This document shows, in pieces, positions 13,421 to 60,372 of a stretch of 64,000 nt of DNA. Numbering within the stretch: the first letter of the stretch is position 1; the number at the start of each line of letters is the position of its first letter. The notes below the pieces were generated by a model. It saw only the letters and a list, made by a program, of their open reading frames with translations. It was not told the origin of the DNA and did no database searches. This stretch comes from Eledone cirrhosa (Eukaryota): NCBI GenBank assembly GCA_964016885.1, contig OZ024744.1, forward strand, positions 63,488,001 to 63,552,000. Reading direction: 5' to 3'. The position numbers and the translations under genes are program-made.

Positions 13421-13650
13421 CTTATTTAGTTTATGTTAAATTTCATACACGTAACATGTATGTGTGACCTTAGGTTTCATGTTCCAGTTATTGTGGAGGA
13501 GCCATTAAAAAACTGGACAAAATTTTAAAGAGTGAGGCCAGTTTTAGAACGGCTCCTCCACTATACAGTGGTGGTCATGACTGGATCTCAAAACCTAAGG
13601 TGGTACATACATGTTAAGTGTATGAAATTTAATATAAACTAAGTGGATAT
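13421..13650. repeat. Diverged fold-back element with hammerhead remnant
   Basis: Arms 13421-13516 and 13538-13650 are inverted; left arm minus strand reads AACTGG..GAAA-CCTAAGG-TC. Confidence 0.7.
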
Positions 13651-17315: not shown

Positions 17316-17494
17316 TATTATAGATAACGAGGAATCAGTGATGCATCAAAACATTTATCTATTAACATATTACATATGTTTCTCCGACGATCAGTTCAAG
17401 GCAGGATCTGAAACAGAGCTGATCGTCAGAGAAACATATGTAATATGTTAATAAATTGTTTTGATGCATCACTGATTCCTCGTTATCTATAATA
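17316..17494. repeat. Fold-back element pivoting just 5' of a hammerhead GAAA
   Basis: Arms 17316-17397 and 17416-17494; right arm reads GAAA-CATATG-TA. Confidence 0.85.
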
Positions 17495-17503
17495 TATATA
17501 TAT

Positions 17504-17694
17504 AACAAAGGAGGTGTGGTAAGGAACCAGATGGACCATAACACACCAGAGTACTCAATACTTAGGGTAGTAGAGTGGGTAATAGGAAAGAGTTTAACCC
17601 TGACGGCAGAGCTCAAGCCGTTTCGACGGCTATTTCTGGACTCAGAGTCCAGAAATAGTCGTCAAAACGGCTTGAGCTCTGGGTTAAACCTATT
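17504..17694. repeat. PLE-end fold-back centred on hammerhead helix II; family shared with 43945-44142
   Basis: Palindrome centred at 17644; minus strand reads ..GCCGTC-GAAA-CGGC-loop-GCCG-TC. Confidence 0.85.
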
Positions 17695-19030
17695 CATCAT
17701 CATAATCATCATCATCATTTTACGTCCACTTTTCCCTGCTTGCAAGGGTGGGACGGGTCTTATTCAGCACAGCATCTCTCCACTTGTCACGGTCCCTCGT
17801 CATCTCCACCGTGAGCTTCAGCAATCTGAGGTCTGTTCTCACCACCTCCGCCCATGTTTTTCGTGGTCTACCTCTACCACGTCTTCCTTCAACTGACATT
17901 TCCTTGCACTTCTTCACCCATCGGTCATCTTCCATGTGCAACACATGTCCATACCACCTCAGTCTCCTCTCCCATACACTACATTCTATCCCTCTCAGAC
18001 AGTTTCTCTCTCAACACATCCATGTTGGGTCGTTCACGCACATTTACACTGCACATCCAACGGAGCATGCTTGCCTCATTTCTCTCCAGCCGTCGCATAT
18101 CCTCTGCAGTTGCTGCCCAAGTCTCACTACCATGCAGCATCGCGCACCTCAGCCAGGCATCATATAACCGGCCTTTCATATGCAGGGAGAAACCCTTCTT
18201 AGTCAGCAGAGGAAGCAGCTCCCTAAACTTCTTCCAACCCATCCTTATTCTAGATACTATGGCCTCGGAACCCCCCCCCCCCCCCTCCCATGCTTATCTG
18301 ATCACCTAGGTACCAGAAGCTATCCACCACTTCTATAGCTCCCGCCTGCATTTGAAAAATGTGTCTATCAATGCGACTTCTACTGTCTAATTTCCCTGTA
18401 CATCTACTGCATACGTATTTCTCACTACCTGTTAGTTTACCTGCTATCCCACTACATCTTTTGTGTACCCAGGATCTGCATTGTGTGTATTTTATAGAGA
18501 ATTTATGCCAGTTCCTTTTCTGCATATCGAACATGGCCATTTCCCTGACGGAATCAGAGTTTTGTCCTCTTTTCTACTCATCAACACTTTTGTCTTAGAT
18601 AAGTTCACTCTCAGTCCTCTTGCTTCCAACTGCTGTTTCCATAGCCAGAATTTATTCTCTAGCTCCTCTACTGATTCTGCTATAAGAACCAGATCGTCAA
18701 CATAGAGAAGTTCCCATGGACAGCCAGTCTTAAACTCCTCTGTTATGGCTTGGGGGACTATAATGAACAAGAACAGGCTGAGGACCGAACTTTGATGTAC
18801 TCCTACTTGTATCTGGAATTCCTCACTAAACTCCATTCCTACCCTGACTTTACTGACAGCACCTCTGTACAAAGTTTGCACTGTCCTCACAAGCCATTCC
18901 TCAACACCTAGTTTTCTTAGGGACCACCAGATGACTGATCGGGGTACCCTATCAAAGACCTTCTCTAGGTCAACAAAGGCTAAGTATAGTGGCTTATTCT
19001 TCTCTAAGAATCTCTCTGAAGGGATCAGGG
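17695..19030 (-). mobile_element. RTE-family LINE with PHD-like finger inside RT (pseudogenised)
   Basis: AFVDLEKVFD, GVHQ, LLYVDD, CSIC..QC..HKRC..CSRC, FWYLG, HGSETW; highly similar to 39753-40870. Confidence 0.9.
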
Positions 19031-35747: not shown

Positions 35748-36250
35748 AAGTATGTATACGTACATACATATATGTATACAGACGTACAGTAGTATATATA
35801 TATACATACATGCACACATATGGATTCACCGAACATTTATTATAATGCTCGGTGTGTTTGTAAACAAACATCCCGAATTAAGCCGTACAGTGTCTAGCAA
35901 CCATCGTTTAACTAACTCGATATGCAAATTAGGCTGCTCAGCCGTTAATATGCATTAGGAAAGTATATACTTTCAGACGTTCAATCATCTGGCAGGAAGG
36001 TATACGTTGCTGACGATAGCTAATAAGCTTGAAACTAGGCCAGCGTTCCTTTGTCAGTGTTGAACAAATGAGCAACGATGGTTGCTAGACGCTGTATGGC
36101 TTAATTCGGGATGTTTGTTTACAAACACACCGAGCATTATAATAAATGTTTGGTGAATCCATACGTACATATATATATATGTGTGCATGTATATATATAT
36201 ACATACTACTGTACGTCTGTATACATATATGTATGTACGTATACATACTT
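35748..36250. repeat. Fold-back element with a hammerhead in the spacer
   Basis: Arms 35748-35909 and 36074-36250; CGTTG-CTGACGA-T-AGCT/AGCT-T-GAAA-CTAG-GC-CAGCG at 36005-36045. Confidence 0.85.
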
Positions 36251-37211: not shown

Positions 37212-37450
37212 TATAATAACTAGAGATTGATTAACATATAAATATACATGAATAATCACAGGAGATAAATTTTTGCTCGCGTGTAACCACGCATAGCTAG
37301 TATAGGTAATATTTACCTTTAAGAGTGATTAACCTTTCCTTGTATATATCCCATTAAAGAAATATATTTCACCAATTAATCAGTTATTTCACCAGTTATC
37401 TCCTGTGATTATTCATGTATATTTATATGTTAATCAATCCCTAGTTATTA
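37212..37450. repeat. Inverted repeat (about 55-bp arms)
   Basis: ATAATAACTAG.GATTGATTAACATATAAATATACATGAATAATCACAGGAGATAA and its reverse complement. Confidence 0.8.
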
Positions 37451-37830
37451 TACACACATATATATATATGACATACACATATATATACTTGTATATAAGC
37501 TGAGAATTATGTGACAAAAAAATATCGACGAAGGGTAAGGGTTGCTTATATTCAAGGTTAATTTCTTGCTGGACTTTTTGGCAACTAAATACCAGTTATT
37601 TAAGTGGGATTTAGGAGGAGGACACACGAAATTCTCCATGTATTACCTGGCTAGTAGTAGTGTCTGTTTTGTTATATAAGTGTGTTTTTTTTAATTTATT
37701 TTACTTTTTCTTTTTCTTTTTTTATTGTCTTTGTAGTAAAAATGTTTTTGTTTTTTAAAAATACCTCCACCTCGTGTGTATATATGTATGTGTATCTCTC
37801 TTTCTCTTTCTCTGTGGTGTATATATATAT

Positions 37831-39752: not shown

Positions 39753-40870
39753 AATTCCAGATACAAGTAGGAGTACATCAGGGTTCGGTCCTCAGCCCGC
39801 TCTTGTTCATTATAGTCCTCCAAGCCATAACAGAGGAGTTTAAGACTGGCTGTCCATGGGAACTTCTCTATGCTGACGATCTGGTTCTTATAGCAGAATC
39901 AGTAGAGGAGCTAGAGAATAAATACTGGCTATGGAAACAGCAGTTGGAAGCAAGAGGACTGAGAGTAAATCTAGCTAAGACAAAAGTGTTGATGAGTAGA
40001 AAAGAGAACAAAACCCTGATTCCGTCAGGGAAATGGCCATGTTTGATATGCAGAAAAGGAACTGGCATAAATTCTATAAAATGCACACAATGCAGATCTT
40101 GGGTACACAAGAGATGTAGCGGGATAGCAGGCAAACTAACAGGTAGGGAGAAATATGTATGCAGTAGATGTACAGGGAAATTAGACAGTAGAAGTGGCAT
40201 TGATAGACACATTTTTCAAATGCAGGAGGGCGCTATAGAAGTGGTGGATAGCTTCCGGTACCTAGGAGATCAGATTAGCATGGGAGGAGGGTGTTCCGAG
40301 GCCATAGTATCTAGAATAAGGACGGGTTGGAAGAAGTTTAGGGAGCTGCTTCCTCTGTTGACGAAGAAGGGTTTCTCCCTGCGTACGAAAGGCCGGTTGA
40401 ATGATGCCTGTGTGAGGAGCGCGATGCTGCATGGTAGTGAGACATGGACAGTAACTGCAGAGGACATGCGACGGCTGGAGAGAAATGAGGCAAGCATGCT
40501 CCGTTGGATGTGCAGTGTAAATGTGCGTGAACGACCCAGCATGAATGTGTTGAGAGAGGAACTGTGCCTGAGAGGGATAGAATGTAGTGTACGGGAGAGG
40601 AGACTGAGGTGGTATGGACATGTGATGTGCATGGAGGATGACCAATGGGTGAAGAAGTGCCAGGAATTGCCAGTTGAAGGAAGACGTGGTAGAGGTAGAC
40701 CACGAAAAACATGGTCGGAGGTGGTGAGAACAGACCTCAGATCATTGAAGCTCACGGTGGAGATGACGAGGGACCGTTACGAGTGGAGAGATGCTGTGCT
40801 GAATAAGACCCGTCCCACCCTTGCAAGCAGGGAAAAGCAGACGTAAAATGATGATGATGATCATGATGAT
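39753..40870 (+). mobile_element. Young 5'-truncated RTE with PHD-like finger; open ORF 39803-40846
   Basis: GVHQG, LLYADD, C4HC3 insert, FRYLG, HGSETW, RGRGRPRKTW; (GAT)n tail. Confidence 0.92.
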
Positions 40871-41028
40871 ATATATGAAACACAAATTTTAATAATTTTG
40901 AAAATCATACTGGGAAATCAAAAATGCCAAGATAACAATAGAATCTTACCTTAGCAAATTTGATAAACCCAAATATTTTCGAGTTTAAAAACCCATTATC
41001 AAGGGAGTATCCCTATAAGGATCAATCG

Positions 41029-41120
41029 GAGTTGACTTGTTTGGAAAGCAGACTTAAGTTAATTGAGATGAAAAGACATTTTCGTTTAACTTAAGTCTGC
41101 TTTCCAAACAAGTCAACTCT
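41029..41120. repeat. Short inverted repeat (34-bp arms)
   Basis: GAGTTGACTTGTTTGGAAAGCAGACTTAAGTTAA / TTAACTTAAGTCTGCTTTCCAAACAAGTCAACTC. Confidence 0.85.
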
Positions 41121-43086: not shown

Positions 43087-43126
<40 letters not shown>

Positions 43127-43127
43127 G

Positions 43128-43671
43128 TTTTTCCGGGTTCAATAGGGAGTAACCACGGTAAGTAAGGTACTCAATACATAGCAGAGTATAAATATTTAAT
43201 ATAGAAAAGCATCTACAGGACTAGAACTGTTTCATTCGTGAGAAATCATCAGGAAGCTGACTGTCCAAGTAAATATGGTGGTATTTATATCTTTTCTAGT
43301 GGTAGGAGAGGGTGGGGATTGGGATAGGTGGTGGTCATTGGTTGATGGGTTTAAAGAAAAGGGAATTCTTTAAAAGCTAATTCTTTAAAGCTATAATTTA
43401 TATTTAAAGTGACAAAGGCAGAAAGAGTACTATAAACAAGTTCAGATTGAAGTACCACTCTTTATTTTTAAGTTTCTCTTAAGCTAACAATGCCTCTATT
43501 TCAAGTGTGTACAGGATGGGTGGAGGTGATTGGTTTAAAGAAAGGGGAATTCTTTAAAAGCTAATTCTTTAAAGCTGTATTTACAGTGACAAAGGCAGAA
43601 AGAATTCAATTTGCGGGTGCTTCTCCTTGTTAATTTCTCTTAAGTTATATTTCAGGTGTCTACAAGCACAT

Positions 43672-43707
<36 letters not shown>

Positions 43708-44705
43708 CACACATTCATACACATATATATACATATACACACACCTACACTTAAAAGCATATATGCATATATGTACACATACATATATACATATATAGAT
43801 ATATATACACATATATATACATATACCCATATACATACATACATATACAAATATACACGCATATATGCATATATACACATATATACACACACGCACACAC
43901 ACACACACACACATATATATATACATATACATATATATATATATATAACGAAGGAAATGTGGTAAGGAACCAGATGGACCATAACGCACCAAACTACTCA
44001 ATACTTAGGGTAGTAGAGTGGGTAATAGGAACGAGTAGGACCCCGACGGCTGAGCTCAAGCCGTTTCGACGGCTAATTCAGTCCAGAATTAGCCGTCGAA
44101 ACGGCTTGAGCTCAGCCGTCGGGGTTCTACTCGTTCCTATATATATATAAACATATATATATATATACAAGTGGAAGCTTAGTAAAATCGAAGCTTTGGC
44201 TGCGGCCAAGCAAAGTCGACCTACAATAAGGAATGAGTAGCAAAGCACTCAATAAGGGAAGGTGTTCAGAGTAAGAACATTACGTTTAGATAGTTTGACA
44301 AATTGAAAATTGCGGCAGGCAAAACCCAGCCATACAATACCAAAACAACGAAAACACTATTCAGGTTAGACAATACATGTATATGTATATATACCCACAA
44401 ACATACATAAATACACATACATGCACATACATGTATATACATGCACATACATGCACATGCATGCATACATTACACATATACATATACATATATATATATA
44501 CATATATATATATATATTAATAAAAGGAATTCCAACTTTGTCTGATTTACTCATTTTATTTACAATCCTTTAAAATTATAAAGATATTATAATGAAATAT
44601 TTTGGTAGAATATTAAGTGTTAAATGTTAAATGAACAAGTACTTTCATGCTTTCGCAATATTCAGGTTCATATTCAGTGGTGACAGTCAAGTTTGCAATT
44701 TTCGA

Positions 44706-44766
<61 letters not shown>

Positions 44767-44767
44767 T

Positions 44768-44832
<65 letters not shown>

Positions 44833-47245
44833 AACATATACATACATATACACATACATAATCATATACATACGTATACATAAACAAATACACACACATG
44901 CATATATACACATACTTATATACATGCATTCAATGAAGTACATCATATATGTGGAAAAATCAGATAGGTAAGAAGTACTTACATAACCATGGTGCCGTGT
45001 GGCGGGTCGAGATGGGGGTAGGGGTAGGGTAGAATGGAGGTGGAGGGGATATTTTGTCGAGTGGGTTTTTTTTTAAAGGAAATTTTTTTAGCCATCTGGC
45101 ATCAACACTGGCTTAAGATATTGGAAAGCTGCAAAGTTTTTGTGCATGTAATTCTGGCAGAGTTCAGAGAGTTTGTTCAGTATCGGGCCCTGGGCAAATA
45201 GTATTTCGTAGCTCTCTGAAATACAAAGGTCGCAGCACTTGTGTCGTCCCTTGTATGAGTGCGCTTTATGGAGTATTTTCCATTTAAGCGTGAAAGGGGT
45301 GGAGTTCCTTTTGAGGTCCTAGATATAGGAGGCGAGTGTTGTCTGATTTGATTTGTCTGGTCTTCTGAAAGAGTGGGTATGGGCTTACCACCGGGTCTTA
45401 AAGTTGTTGGAAGTCATTCCGATATAAGTCATTTTGTTATTGTCATCAGTGCCGGAGATGACATCACATTTGTATACGATGTAATTTGTCAGGCATTTGT
45501 TTTCAAGTGGGCAGGCTTTCTTATTTTGGCAGTTGCACAAAGCTCCCGTCCGGGGATTCGGTGCGGAGGTAGTAGGCTTAATTAATTTTGTAGTGTTGAG
45601 ATTGGCAATTTGAAGAAAGTCCTAGCTATGCCTATTCCTTCTAGGTAGTCTTGGGGTGGTTTCTAGATAAGTGATCTTTTCTTTAAATCCGCTGCGGGCG
45701 AGGGCGTCGTTGTAGTAAGAGGCAGAGGCGATAAAGATATCTTCATTGGCCGAGAGGCCGGAGATTCTGATTGAGACGCTTGTAACTAAGTTATCTGTGA
45801 TGTTTTGGGGGTGGTTAGAATTAACATTTATATATCTGAAGGACTCGTTAGGTTTGTGGTATGGGTAATAGAGGGAAGTATCTAAGTCTAGACTGACATC
45901 TAAAAAGTTGGCCCTAGTCATATTAGATTCTAAGGTTATTCTAAATCCTAGATTACGGAAGAACGAGCTTAAGTTTCTCCGAAACCCATCAGTGGTTCCG
46001 GGGTTAACCTTGTGCAAGGCGAAAAGGCCATCATCTCGGTATAATCCTCCGGTAAGGCCCGTGAAGAGGTTCTTCATGTGGTGAAAGTTGTACAGGCCCA
46101 CGAGGTCGTTAATTTCAGCCGAGTCACTTGCTCCGATGCTGACGTCAAAAGGGGTCTAAGACTTCTTGTTGATCCAGTAAGATTCCTCGTGGTGTAGAAA
46201 GGTCTTACGGGCGTGGAGTATCACATCCTGCTCAGCGTCGGTTATGGTTGTAAAATTCCTGGCAAAAGCAAGTGCGTCCTTCAGTAGGGGCTCAGAGATA
46301 GAAAGATAGAAGTCTTCTATGACGAGTTGCAGGAAGCGAGTGTGGCGTTTGTCGGCCAATTCTTAAAACCAAGAGAATGCCTCGGAAGTTCTGCTCCAGA
46401 GTGGGAGTGGTGAAGCCACCCGCACTGATGGTAGAAATCTGTCGAGGATCTTTTTGCTGATAGAGTCGATGTCCGAACGTGTGGGGTTGATAGGTCTGAC
46501 TGATGGTTTGTTGAGGAAGTTTCCCTTGTGGTCCTTCAGGGTAAAGTGCGGGGTCTTTATCCTTAAAGGTTCCGTTCGGTCGTGTAATTTAAGGGATTTG
46601 GCAATTTCTTTTCCGGCCGCATTGATCTCTGTCAATGCCATCTCATTCACCTTTTTGTAGGTAGTCGTGATAGCATTTTTGCCAGCTTATTATAGGTTGG
46701 TAGGTCTACCTCATAAACGTTTTTGGTTTTATCGGAGGAGACATGGAGATTGGGGGAAGTTTTCATTTTCCGCATTTCAGTATTTAAGTAGGCTCAGAAT
46801 GGTGTGTTGGCTCTACGAAATTTGATATCTTTGATCATCTTGAAGAGGTCTTTCTCAAATGGTTCAAGTAGGCTGTTGATGGGTGGTGCCTTATTCGTTT
46901 TGAAACCGAACTTCTTATCATTGGTAGATGCAACATCAAGGTTGTCAAAGAAGAAGGCTCTCCATCTAATTCGCTTGATGAACTCGTATGTACGTCTGAT
47001 GAGTGTTTTTAGGTAAAGTTTCCTTGAAGGGATCAGTATGTGTATATATGTATGTGTGTGTGTATTTGTTTATGCATACGTATGTATATGATTATGTATG
47101 TGTATATATGTATGTTTATGTGTATATATGTATATATATATATATTAATATATGTGTATGTATATTGTATGTATATATGTGTATATATGCATGTATGCGT
47201 GTATATTTGTATATGTATGTATGTGTATGGGTATATGTATAATGT
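43128..47245 (-). mobile_element. Naiad-like PLE (RT + GIY-YIG 45090-47033; 3' pLTR 43128-43660), with nested insertions and an inverted 5' piece
   Basis: RIRWRAFF, DKT, TLKDHK, DVSIGASDSAE, GGLYRDDG, NFLDVSL, CNC..CPL, YIG; pLTR hammerhead CTGATGA..GAAA at 43224-43255. Confidence 0.9.
43945..44142. repeat. PLE-end fold-back centred on hammerhead helix II
   Basis: Arms 44025-44079 and 44086-44140; GAATTAGCCGTC-GAAA-CGGCT-tgagctc-AGCCG-TC. Confidence 0.9.
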
Positions 47246-49811: not shown

Positions 49812-49816
<5 letters not shown>

Positions 49817-50405
49817 AAATTGAGGTTGGTAATGGCACATGGAATATATAAGAGACAGAATACTTTTTTGTGAAAAAACATAATTTTATAAGGTAAGGAA
49901 ATAATAAAGGGTATAAAAAATGACCGGTTTCGATGGGTCTGCAAAAGCCATCTTTTCAAATGTTGATTAATATTAAGAAAAATTAATAATACGAAGAGTT
50001 AAAATTTGAGACTTGAAAATTCAAGTATAAAAGTGTGTGTATATTGCCTCCACCCCCCACTGACCAGCAGCCGGCTATTGCCAAACCTGACCCCTACAAA
50101 ATAACCCACACCCCAAATAACCTCTCATTCACCACCAGAAAGGGACACAGCAGTCAACCTGTTGTTGCCACCTAGATGAAAACTGCTATGAAATGAATTT
50201 TCAAGTCTCAAATTTTAACTCTTCGTATTATTAATTTTTCTTAATATTAATCAACATTTGAAAAGATGGCTTTTGCAGACCCATCGAAACCGGTCATTTT
50301 TTATACCCTTTATTATTTCCTTACCTTATAAAATTATGTTTTTTCACAAAAAAGTATTCTGTCTCTTATATATTCCATGTGCCATTACCAACCTCAATTT
50401 TCTCT
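49812..50405. repeat. Near-perfect fold-back (about 210-bp arms) with a variant hammerhead in each arm
   Basis: Arms 49812-50023 and 50194-50405; TTGAAAA-GATGG/CCATC-GAAA-CCGG-TC at 50258-50295. Confidence 0.9.
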
Positions 50406-50436
50406 ATAACCTTCGTTTTGTGTAGAAAATTACACT

Positions 50437-50496
<60 letters not shown>

Positions 50497-50623: not shown

Positions 50624-51153
50624 AATGTATGTATAGTATATTTGGTAATATACCGTATGTTTAATTAAAAACATTTTGAAGACCTTCCGCTATCATTTTA
50701 AAGTAGTGACTATGTCACTTACTTCTTTTTTCGGCAAAGAAAGGGAGAGAAGCTGACAGATTCTGTTTCACACTGTTGGTGTTCCTCAGAGCAGCGTACT
50801 TCCCGACCTCTGCCGACGAAAATTATAGAGACTGAATTCTTAGAGAATTCCAGTAATAATCAGGAACTGATTATACAGAGCGATTGCCGGTTCACCAATC
50901 AGTTCCTGATTATTACTGGAATTCTCTAAGAATCCAGCCGCTATAATTTTCGTCGGCAGAGGTCGGGAAGTACGCTGCTCTGAGGAACACCAACAGTGTG
51001 AAACAGAATATGTCAGCTTCTCTCCCTTTCTTTGCCGAAAAAAGAAGTAAGTGACATAGTCATTACTTTAAAATGATAGCGGAAGGTCTTCAAAATGTTT
51101 TTATGTTTTTAATTAAACATACGGTATATTACCAAATATACTATACATACATT
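50624..51153. repeat. Near-perfect fold-back (about 250-bp arms) with a hammerhead in each arm
   Basis: 24-nt loop at 50872-50895; GCT-CTGAGGA-ACAC/GTGT-GAAA-CAG-aat-CTG-TC-AGC (minus 50752-50792; plus 50977-51017). Confidence 0.92.
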
Positions 51154-51316: not shown

Positions 51317-51545
51317 TATCAATAAAAATAACAGGAGGCTGGGCTGGTGTAAATCCTTGAAACCTTTCAAGGATTTACACCAGTCCAGCCTCCCGTTATT
51401 TTTATTGATAATTAACTCCGTATTCGCGCCACCAACTACACAAACGAAGGCGGGTGAACTGCACTACGTTGAGTACTCTCCACAATATTACACCAAGATT
51501 GACCATACGGAATTCTATCCAGTGGTGAACCAACAAACCTAAAGA
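51317..51545. repeat. PLE terminus with a palindrome of about 45-bp arms (51317-51410)
   Basis: ATCAATAAAAATAAC.GGAGGCTGG.CTGGTGTAAATCCTTGAAA and its inverse; both ends related to 34195-34620. Confidence 0.7.
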
Positions 51546-56406: not shown

Positions 56407-59330
<2,924 letters not shown>

Positions 59331-59360: not shown

Positions 59361-60372
59361 ATATATTGGTAAACGGAATAGAAAATGCTGACAAATTGTT
59401 CACAGTTGAAAAATGGTTTAATTAGGAATAAAAGAGTATTAGTGATTGTATGGGTTAGTATTCAGTTGTGGTTTTAAGTTTTTAAGTTTTTACCGGTTGC
59501 GCATTTCTAAATGCTTTTCAAAAATAATTTTGAGATAGAGTGTCCGTGTTGTTTGCTCTGATCTGATTAGTTTTGGGAATTCTACCTGTTTTTATGTTAA
59601 AAAAAGTGGCTCCAGCGTTACTTTGGTGTTGCAAAAATTCTTGTGGTCAAAACAATTTTGATTGGTCGGTAGAGGTCATGTGAATGTAAAAAATTGATTT
59701 TGCGCCAAGACTGTTTTTATGTTAAAAAAGTGGCTCCAGCGCTACTTGGTGATTGCAAAAATTCTTGTGGTCAAAACAATTTTGATTGGTCGGTAGAGGT
59801 CATGTGAATAAAAAATTGGGTTTGCGCCATTATCACAACATCGAACACCTTACTACTACTACACACACACACACACACACATATATTTGTTGTGAAAGAG
59901 TCATTTCTCAATCTTGGCGCAAAACCAATTTTTTATTCACATGACCTCTACCGACCAATCAAAATTGTTTTGACCACAAGAATTTTTGCAAACACCAAGT
60001 AGCGCTGGAGCCACTTTTTTAACATAAAAACAGTCTTGGCGCAAAATCAATTTTTTTGCATTCACATGACCTCTACCGACCAATCAAAATTGTTTTGACC
60101 ACAAGAATTTTTGCAACACCAAAGTAACGCTGGAGCCACTTTTTTAACATAAAAACAGGTAGAATTCCCAAAACTAATCAGATCAGAGCAAACAACACGG
60201 ACACTCTTTCTCAAAATTATTTTTGAAAAGCATTTAGAAATGCGCAACGGTAAAAACTTAAAAACTTAAAACCACAACTGAATACTAACCCATACAATCA
60301 CTAATACTCTTTTATTCCTTTTTTCAACTGTGAACAATTTGTCAGCATTTTCTATTCCGTTTACCAATATAT
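59361..60372. repeat. Fold-back (about 460-bp arms, each with a roughly 120-bp tandem duplication) carrying variant hammerheads
   Basis: Arms 59361-59829 and 59915-60372; TTGAAAA-GCATTT/AAATGC-GCAA-CCGG-TA. Confidence 0.92.

Follow-up and report, generated by a model that had tools for sequence, protein, structure and literature searches.

Half-hammerhead hairpins in TA repeats of Eledone cirrhosa are probably insertions of a Penelope-like element built from two cDNAs

The hairpin at positions 43945-44142 of the window, by which we mean the whole 64,000-nt stretch of Eledone cirrhosa DNA analyzed here, most probably represents a short insertion of a Hydra-type Penelope-like element (PLE) that was built head to head from two separately primed cDNAs, that is, by twin target-primed reverse transcription, a reading to which we assign a probability of about 0.7. 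At least 11,000 near-identical insertions of this PLE end lie in TA repeats, and these events favor two sense-templated cDNAs over the self-priming proposed earlier.

Results

The hairpin is a 193-base PLE end embedded in a TA repeat, with a (TA)n/(CA)n target microsatellite on its left (43900-43946) and (TA)n on its right (44140-44168). We number the element from the outer end of its tail (position 1 is window 43947), the plus strand of the window being antisense to the element RNA. The feature is not purely palindromic, as 79 nt (43947-44025, minus strand, positions 1-79) are one-sided and form the PLE "tail," whose outer end is the putative reverse transcriptase (RT) start site 1 and whose window plus strand would be the cDNA. 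The remainder (44026-44139) is an inverted repeat of 54 to 55 bp with one mismatch and a 6-nt center, which folds as single-stranded DNA with a z of -18.3. Its tailed arm (44026-44079, minus strand, positions 80-133) ends 6 nt short of the putative RNA 5' end, and its tail-less arm (44080-44139, plus strand) runs from position 139 to position 80, with a putative transcription start at 44080 and the putative RT start site 2 at 44139. The arm junction is 133|139, and the six central bases (44080-44085, plus strand) belong to the tail-less arm, so that copying of the tailed strand cannot supply them.

Both arms carry the 3' half of a type I hammerhead, on the minus strand in the left arm and on the plus strand in the right arm (44090-44125), where it consists of the helix II 3' strand (44090-44097), GAAA (44098-44101), helix III (44102-44118), a GUC site predicted to be cut after 44120, and a helix I strand (44121-44125); the 5' core is missing. 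This agrees with the initial annotation, made from the letters of the window, which had described a PLE end with a hammerhead 3' half in each arm and no CUGAnGA half. The same annotation had pointed to a second copy pivoting at the same place, and the copy starting at 17504, from an older subfamily and 86% identical to the first, does pivot within a few bases of it. Its tailed arm (17504-17642, minus strand) is complete to position 139, its tail-less arm (17646-17690, plus strand) starts from position 139, has a short internal deletion, and has lost its outer end beside another dispersed repeat starting near 17691. Each arm extends to the final base of the template and then carries an extra C, and a single base separates the two arms: the junction (17643-17645) reads as a nonparental C, one spacer base, and a nonparental G that is the extra C of the other arm, which may be one cap-templated base per arm.

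The TA junctions are present in contigs of runs X3 and X5, one of which is 60 nt long and palindromic, and the depth shows a step close to the pivot. This speaks only against an assembly artifact, as X3 may be the source organism's own data and contigs cannot reveal an RNA start.

The window holds further long hairpins of unrelated sequence. One, at 49812-50440, is a perfect 212-bp inverted repeat of a different family in (TA)n with about 35 one-sided nucleotides, the same tail-plus-hairpin design; others lie at 17316-17494, 35819-36163, 37212-37452, 50666-51103, 51317-51410, 13426-13642, 41029-41119, and 59688-60056. Several are TA flanked, and some may be ends of other PLE families. Inverted pairs of dispersed repeats of other families, 92 to 99% identical, are found at 43123-46573 with 56687-59204 and at 17691-18820 with 39753-40875, the latter adjoining the right end of the 17504 copy.

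Exact matches to a 30-nt tail pattern number 23,159 in the 3.0-Gb genome, of which 312 extend into the element body, and a genome pattern count gives 11,139 palindromic centers. The longer copies include tandem arrays with a unit of 3,531 to 3,546 bp and a frame of 784 codons open from stop to stop (first ATG at L130:2019). This frame holds RT motifs, DKT, RWR, a CxCX5C linker, and, at the C terminus, a GIY-YIG-like domain with CxxC and CxH around a conserved E and N; there is no CCHH. A Pfam search with the 784-amino-acid protein returned 0 families, and Rfam at gathering thresholds gave 0 matches in the window. Its neighbors in a protein atlas (0.96 to 0.99) are cnidarian and ctenophore proteins or clusters, with GIY-YIG or RVT_1 annotated on part of the members. 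One open reading frame (ORF) that holds RT and a GIY-YIG-like motif, tandem units, and an inverted 5'-truncated copy with a one-sided tail are features of EN+ PLEs. Within these the parent fits the Hydra clade, on motifs compared by eye, without a tree, with the descriptions in PMC8557442: DKG is replaced by DKT, the CxCX5C linker and CxxC plus CxH are present, CCHH is absent, and insertion is into (TA)n. RWR occupies the place of the N-terminal RWK of that clade, and the unit exceeds the length below 3 kb that PMC8557442 gives as a tendency, not a rule. Arrays of three to five full-length units, 98 to 100% identical, occur at L129-L137, several with open 784-codon frames; the family is young and may be active. 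At L132:7671-10000, the inner end of a multimeric insertion holds a 55-bp piece of the ORF amplified to over 40 copies in tandem. A short motif of start site 2 is repeated near the tail end (L130:1839-1862 and 1899-1918), where one copy, L019, stops at the second occurrence; this motif may be an RT recognition element.

Long copies hold the ribozyme half that the hairpins lack, namely, helix I, a YUGANAA core, and the helix II 5' strand at positions 167-172. The core was seen in 32 of 36 distinct read-through sequences (78 overlapping reads in total), retrieved by a pattern not blind to the core region; 23 had U3 and 13 had C3, which gives a mismatch with A8, N7 was variable, and none read CUGANGA. 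With its core boxes and three helices, the parent has the make-up of a type I hammerhead, and the intact parent that the initial annotation called for does exist in long copies, with YUGANAA and not CUGANGA as its core. The minimum-energy fold of L130:1735-1850 has hammerhead topology, with a stability no better than that of shuffled sequences (z of 0.33). Parental helix II is capped by a 37-nt insert (positions 130-166), and the hairpins pivot 2 to 15 nt inside it; the symmetry axis, previously placed at the helix II loop, is within the helix II cap but not at a short loop. Arms ending at the predicted cut site, position 98, form a weak class (5 of 322). Three such ends occur within L184 and, together with arms of L158 and L179 that end at or beside the site (98-100), are possibly copies of cleaved RNA. 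The tandem units with a whole hammerhead that characterize non-LTR retrozymes are absent from the hairpins and present at L139:4291-6501 (G000:C2:356025500-356032000), where at least eight head-to-tail 299-bp units, each comprising the pLTR and the ORF start, carry a whole hammerhead whose helix II insert lacks 20 nt; the array is a PLE derivative that resembles a retrozyme.

Arm lengths were obtained from 90 of the first 100 listed tail matches, taken in genome order irrespective of structure, 2 of which were partners of others, leaving 88 insertions. A strict junction parser found an adjacent inverted arm in 60 of the 88, having missed at least six inverted copies (L031, L070, L092, L101, L103, and L105), and L055, L077, and L069 inflate its +10 class (17); two other parsers were flawed, one falsely matching TA repeats and one running through a mini-palindrome. 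By the strict parser, 88 of 120 inner arm ends fell at positions 131-144 and none at 145-170, a clustering of inversion breakpoints that the initial annotation had predicted. The outer end of the inverted arm was position 80 in 59 of 60 copies, although TAT is present at 56 and 36 too, and the previously noted joining to (TA)n with a TAT overlap was likewise borne out. Over 80 centers, most of them found via the tail, 77 had one tailed and one tail-less arm, 3 were double tailed, and none was double tail-less; all 20 hairpins fetched by their center alone had one arm of each kind (two tails being internally deleted). The unpaired center was 0 to 2 nt in 34 of the 80, and both arms reached position 139 in 19. 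Five copies (L046, L054, L066, L093, and L116) had no sequence common to the two arms. Sixty junctions comprised 32 with an overlap of 1 to 7 nt, 9 blunt joints, and otherwise short inserts, which fits end joining or a template jump.

The alternative that survives best, though we consider it improbable as an account of the family, is that a single cDNA, having run off the 5' end of the RNA, folds back on a few bases close to its own terminus and not on helix II, is copied back, and is joined to (TA)n at position 80, with later deletions and loop inversions scrambling the polarity of the arms; such events after insertion can indeed blur polarity. Self-priming has been put forward before to explain palindromes at PLE junctions (PMC3846280), a 4-bp mini-hairpin is found at 130-143 in one subfamily, and loops of 3 to 7 nt with the tailed arm longer are common, making up 20 of 77 centers, about a quarter. 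Yet the tail-less arm was longer by at least 2 nt in 27 of 59 copies, against 21 in which it was shorter and 11 within 1 nt (a recount on 77 centers at a difference of at least 3 nt gave 17 versus 20), and at some loci it is longer by kilobases, with a tailed arm of 282 bp facing a tail-less arm of about 16 kb at L129-L130, about 0.8 kb facing 5 kb at L121, and L125 behaving likewise. The opposite polarity occurs at the kilobase scale too (L124, L126, and L128). The most frequent center has its loop on the tail-less arm and is shared by seven copies with at least six haplotypes, so that it is recurrent and not a clade; several copies have a terminal extra C on both arms with 0 to 2 nt between them, and the strict stop at 80 is left unexplained by folding back. 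As a general route it is largely refuted, and it may account for a minority share.

A further argument for folding back comes from the subfamilies. A three-site haplotype was equal in both arms in 41 of 43 copies, versus 11.9 expected by shuffling (maximum of 21 in 2,000), a concordance that folding back predicts outright, whereas with two cDNAs it is expected only when both are copied from a single RNA or a single source locus. It agrees with the arm-shared variants seen in the initial annotation. Within-copy arm mismatch was 3.2% (72/2,258, a value inflated by three internally deleted copies) versus 6.9% between copies, the comparison that the initial annotation had suggested. The annotation's argument that variants shared by the two arms are copy specific and show separate origins holds in its conclusion and not in its premise: TATTTC occurs also in L031, L095, L101, and L115, TAATTC and TATTTC distinguish subfamilies, and of 64 variant sites common to both arms only 3 were confined to a single copy, the other 61 not being so confined, while a separate formation of each hairpin follows from the 59 distinct centers among 80. 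One single case, L191, combines arms from two subfamilies, and L009 has two subfamilies in direct tandem, joined at the pivot; together these suggest that more than one RNA can be used per event.

Two separately primed cDNAs, the reading we prefer, would both end where their template ends, and the wall of arm ends has the marks of such an end. The parental base after position 139 is A or G, and a nonparental C followed in 3,580 arms, versus T in 731; at most 1,219 of the 3,580 are explicable as the first base of the other arm. Of the arms, 5,469 read through position 139, and C stood there in only 1 of 78 read-through arms. Among 275 arms examined, a free C exceeded a free T by 14 to 1 after 139, compared with 3 to 5 after position 136, and 100 listed extra-C arms included 8 facing pairs, 5 of them 0 to 2 nt apart. 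Direct tandems at three loci (L138:949-1669, L143, and L144) restart at 139 after about 20 nt of the ORF; their 257-bp units, from the putative start to about 20 nt into the ORF, suggest that RT has a third site for starting or jumping close to the start codon. In 45 copies with a tail continuing into the ORF, the ends ranged from 21 to more than 1,100, with 6 of the 45 at 133-140 and the early stops at indels. Runs of A exceeding those of the parent follow 139 in one or both arms of L098, L102, L138, L185, and L193 and are likely untemplated additions or slippage; purine additions are otherwise hidden there, A and G being parental. A TATA-like motif lies 29 to 31 nt upstream of 139, imperfect or not retained in some subfamilies, and the context at 139 is initiator-like.

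From the arm-end wall and the nonparental C, we infer that position 139 is likely the capped 5' end of the RNA, lying within the helix II insert. At the 5' junctions of full-length L1 insertions, a cap-derived additional G is a known mark (PMC11702581), and PLE start sites have been located in the pLTR (PMC2377424; PMC3846280). The extra C could alternatively be a terminal-transferase product, which would mark the template end all the same. Slightly less probable again than folding back near the RNA end is that two cDNAs were made but that the wall marks a place where RT stops or the RNA is processed, such as a hairpin tip, a splice acceptor, or a nuclease cut. Position 139 does lie in the 3' strand of a predicted inner hairpin and adjoins an acceptor-like pyrimidine-AG, and Penelope has an intron near its start (PMC2377424); against this, thousands of arms read through, and the initiator-like context and the TATA spacing suit a start. 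The splice acceptor was set aside, as the sequence beyond the extra C varies between copies and no constant upstream exon is joined.

The initial annotation had instead made the ribozyme itself the cause, with nascent cDNA self-priming on hammerhead helix II and being copied back, and this we consider very improbable. The pivot is within the helix II insert and the cDNA could form the parental helix II, but priming there requires a cDNA that reaches position 172 and then continues into the GAAA arm, and a genome-wide search for that junction, with patterns covering the main subfamilies, found 0 matches versus 2,230 for the parental junction. Fold-back junctions at the apex of the insert numbered 5, compared with the 11,139 centers, and since no arm ends at 145-170, short cDNAs never reach the helix II 5' strand needed for priming; both copies in the window contradict folding back directly. 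The idea was also less new than had been thought, as a 2013 paper (PMC3846280) had already proposed self-priming, on an antisense template, as the source of palindromes at PLE junctions. Uniformly spread breakpoints, the lack of a CUGAnGA-bearing parent, or a single clade with target-site duplications had been named as grounds for abandoning that model; none of the three was cleanly found, the parental core being YUGANAA. A DNA MITE, or two independent insertions meeting in one TA tract, accounts for the hairpin shape, the TA flanks, and the high copy number, but is equally hard to credit, as the initial annotation had held for the MITE, given a parent that encodes RT and GIY-YIG, a tail on one side only, many distinct centers, and arms that share their haplotype; terminal inverted repeats at both ends, one founder, and a transposase-encoding parent, which define a MITE, are not what is seen, and any target-site duplication would be concealed by the (TA)n flanks.

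Discussion

Our results lead us to propose that a protein, probably a dimer, would nick both strands of a (TA)n tract and that each target 3' end would be extended from one of two fixed RNA start sites, at positions 1 and 80. The RNA would be capped and would start at 139, inside the 37-nt helix II insert, so that the two cDNAs would measure 139 and 60 nt and contain only the 3' half of the ribozyme. Each cDNA would be attached to one target strand, point inward, and run off the RNA 5' end, and the cDNA 3' ends, trimmed by a few bases, would be connected through annealing at microhomologies or through a template jump from end to end. With longer or multimeric RNAs, the same two-armed design would arise at the kilobase scale. 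For both cDNAs to come from one RNA or one locus, the RT would need either to displace the cDNA made first or to bind two RNAs. The ribozyme would mark the pivot only because the promoter sits within it.

A more general form of this proposal, which we put at a little under even odds, holds that PLE integration is obligately two-ended, a dimer priming both (TA)n strands at two fixed RNA sites and each insertion consisting of two 3'-joined cDNAs. With the promoter inside the hammerhead, the normal capped mRNA would carry the substrate half only, its first 139 nt giving rise to tens of thousands of hairpins, while only read-through RNA would have the whole ribozyme and yield full-length copies.

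Each component of this picture has been described before: pLTR inversion, pLTR hammerheads, one-sided tails, and palindromic junctions (PMC8557442; PMC3846280; PMC4209133). A literature search confined largely to freely available papers, with the older Penelope papers outside it, turned up none in which the two arms are ascribed to two cDNAs or a start is put inside helix II. The inverted pLTR has been explained by self-priming on an antisense template (PMC3846280, 2013) or by EN-mediated resolution (PMC8557442, 2021), and the copies analyzed here point instead to two sense-templated cDNAs. Both PMC8557442 and PMC11167929 list the origin of inverted pLTRs and one-sided tails in PLEs as an open question, and more than 11,000 stereotyped natural events bear on it. 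The findings also show that a retrotransposon can give rise to large numbers of MITE-like hairpins within TA repeats, hairpins that repeat annotation might class as DNA transposons, and they place a likely promoter within a ribozyme.

Among known systems, Hydra-clade PLEs (Craig et al. 2021, PMC8557442) share with the present element a single ORF, a C-terminal GIY-YIG, DKT, CxCX5C, CxxC/CxH, (TA)n targets, and a pLTR hammerhead. They differ in a length generally below 3 kb, compared with a 3.53-kb unit here, and in RWK, compared with RWR; the U3-A8 core, the 37-nt helix II insert, and the fact that most copies are hairpins of about 200 bp set our element apart as well. Penelope, Naiad, and bdelloid PLEs have head-to-head inverted ends, a one-sided tail, palindromic junctions, and TATA and initiator-like motifs in the pLTR, as here (PMC8557442; PMC3846280; PMC2377424), with a tail of 30 to 40 nt and not 79 nt.

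A biochemical counterpart is the anole Poseidon protein PAc, a predicted dimer, which in vitro cleaves and extends both strands, has two internal RT starts bounding the tail, and uses uncleaved RNA as its main template (Frangieh et al. 2024, PMC11167929). In the portions of that report available to us, the two starts are not linked to the two arms of one insertion and later steps are left open. The PAc starts are situated within the ORF and lack homology with the target (PMC11167929), whereas those proposed here lie in the 5' untranslated region at UAU with an overlap of 2 to 3 nt with the target at both, a difference that counts against our reading. LINE-1 twin priming (PMC11702581) likewise primes both target ends, joins cDNAs by microhomology, and leaves a cap G at full-length 5' ends, but it is occasional, with variable second-primer sites and arms that barely overlap. 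In the present element it would be near-obligate, with both starts fixed and arms usually overlapping in full, and it is this full overlap that makes hairpins.

Published descriptions of PLE hammerheads (Cervera and de la Pena 2014, PMC4209133) and of non-LTR retrozymes (10.64898/2026.07.22.740005) include type I hammerheads in pLTRs, the U3-A8 covariation of the core (PMC4209133), and motif pairs 100 to 700 bp apart on opposite strands. Compared with what those two sources describe in their accessible text, the element studied here has a full-stem helix III, a putative promoter in helix II, and nontandem hairpins that carry half a ribozyme. It adds a new member to a clade and an architecture already known, and the form it takes bears on a mechanistic question that is still open.
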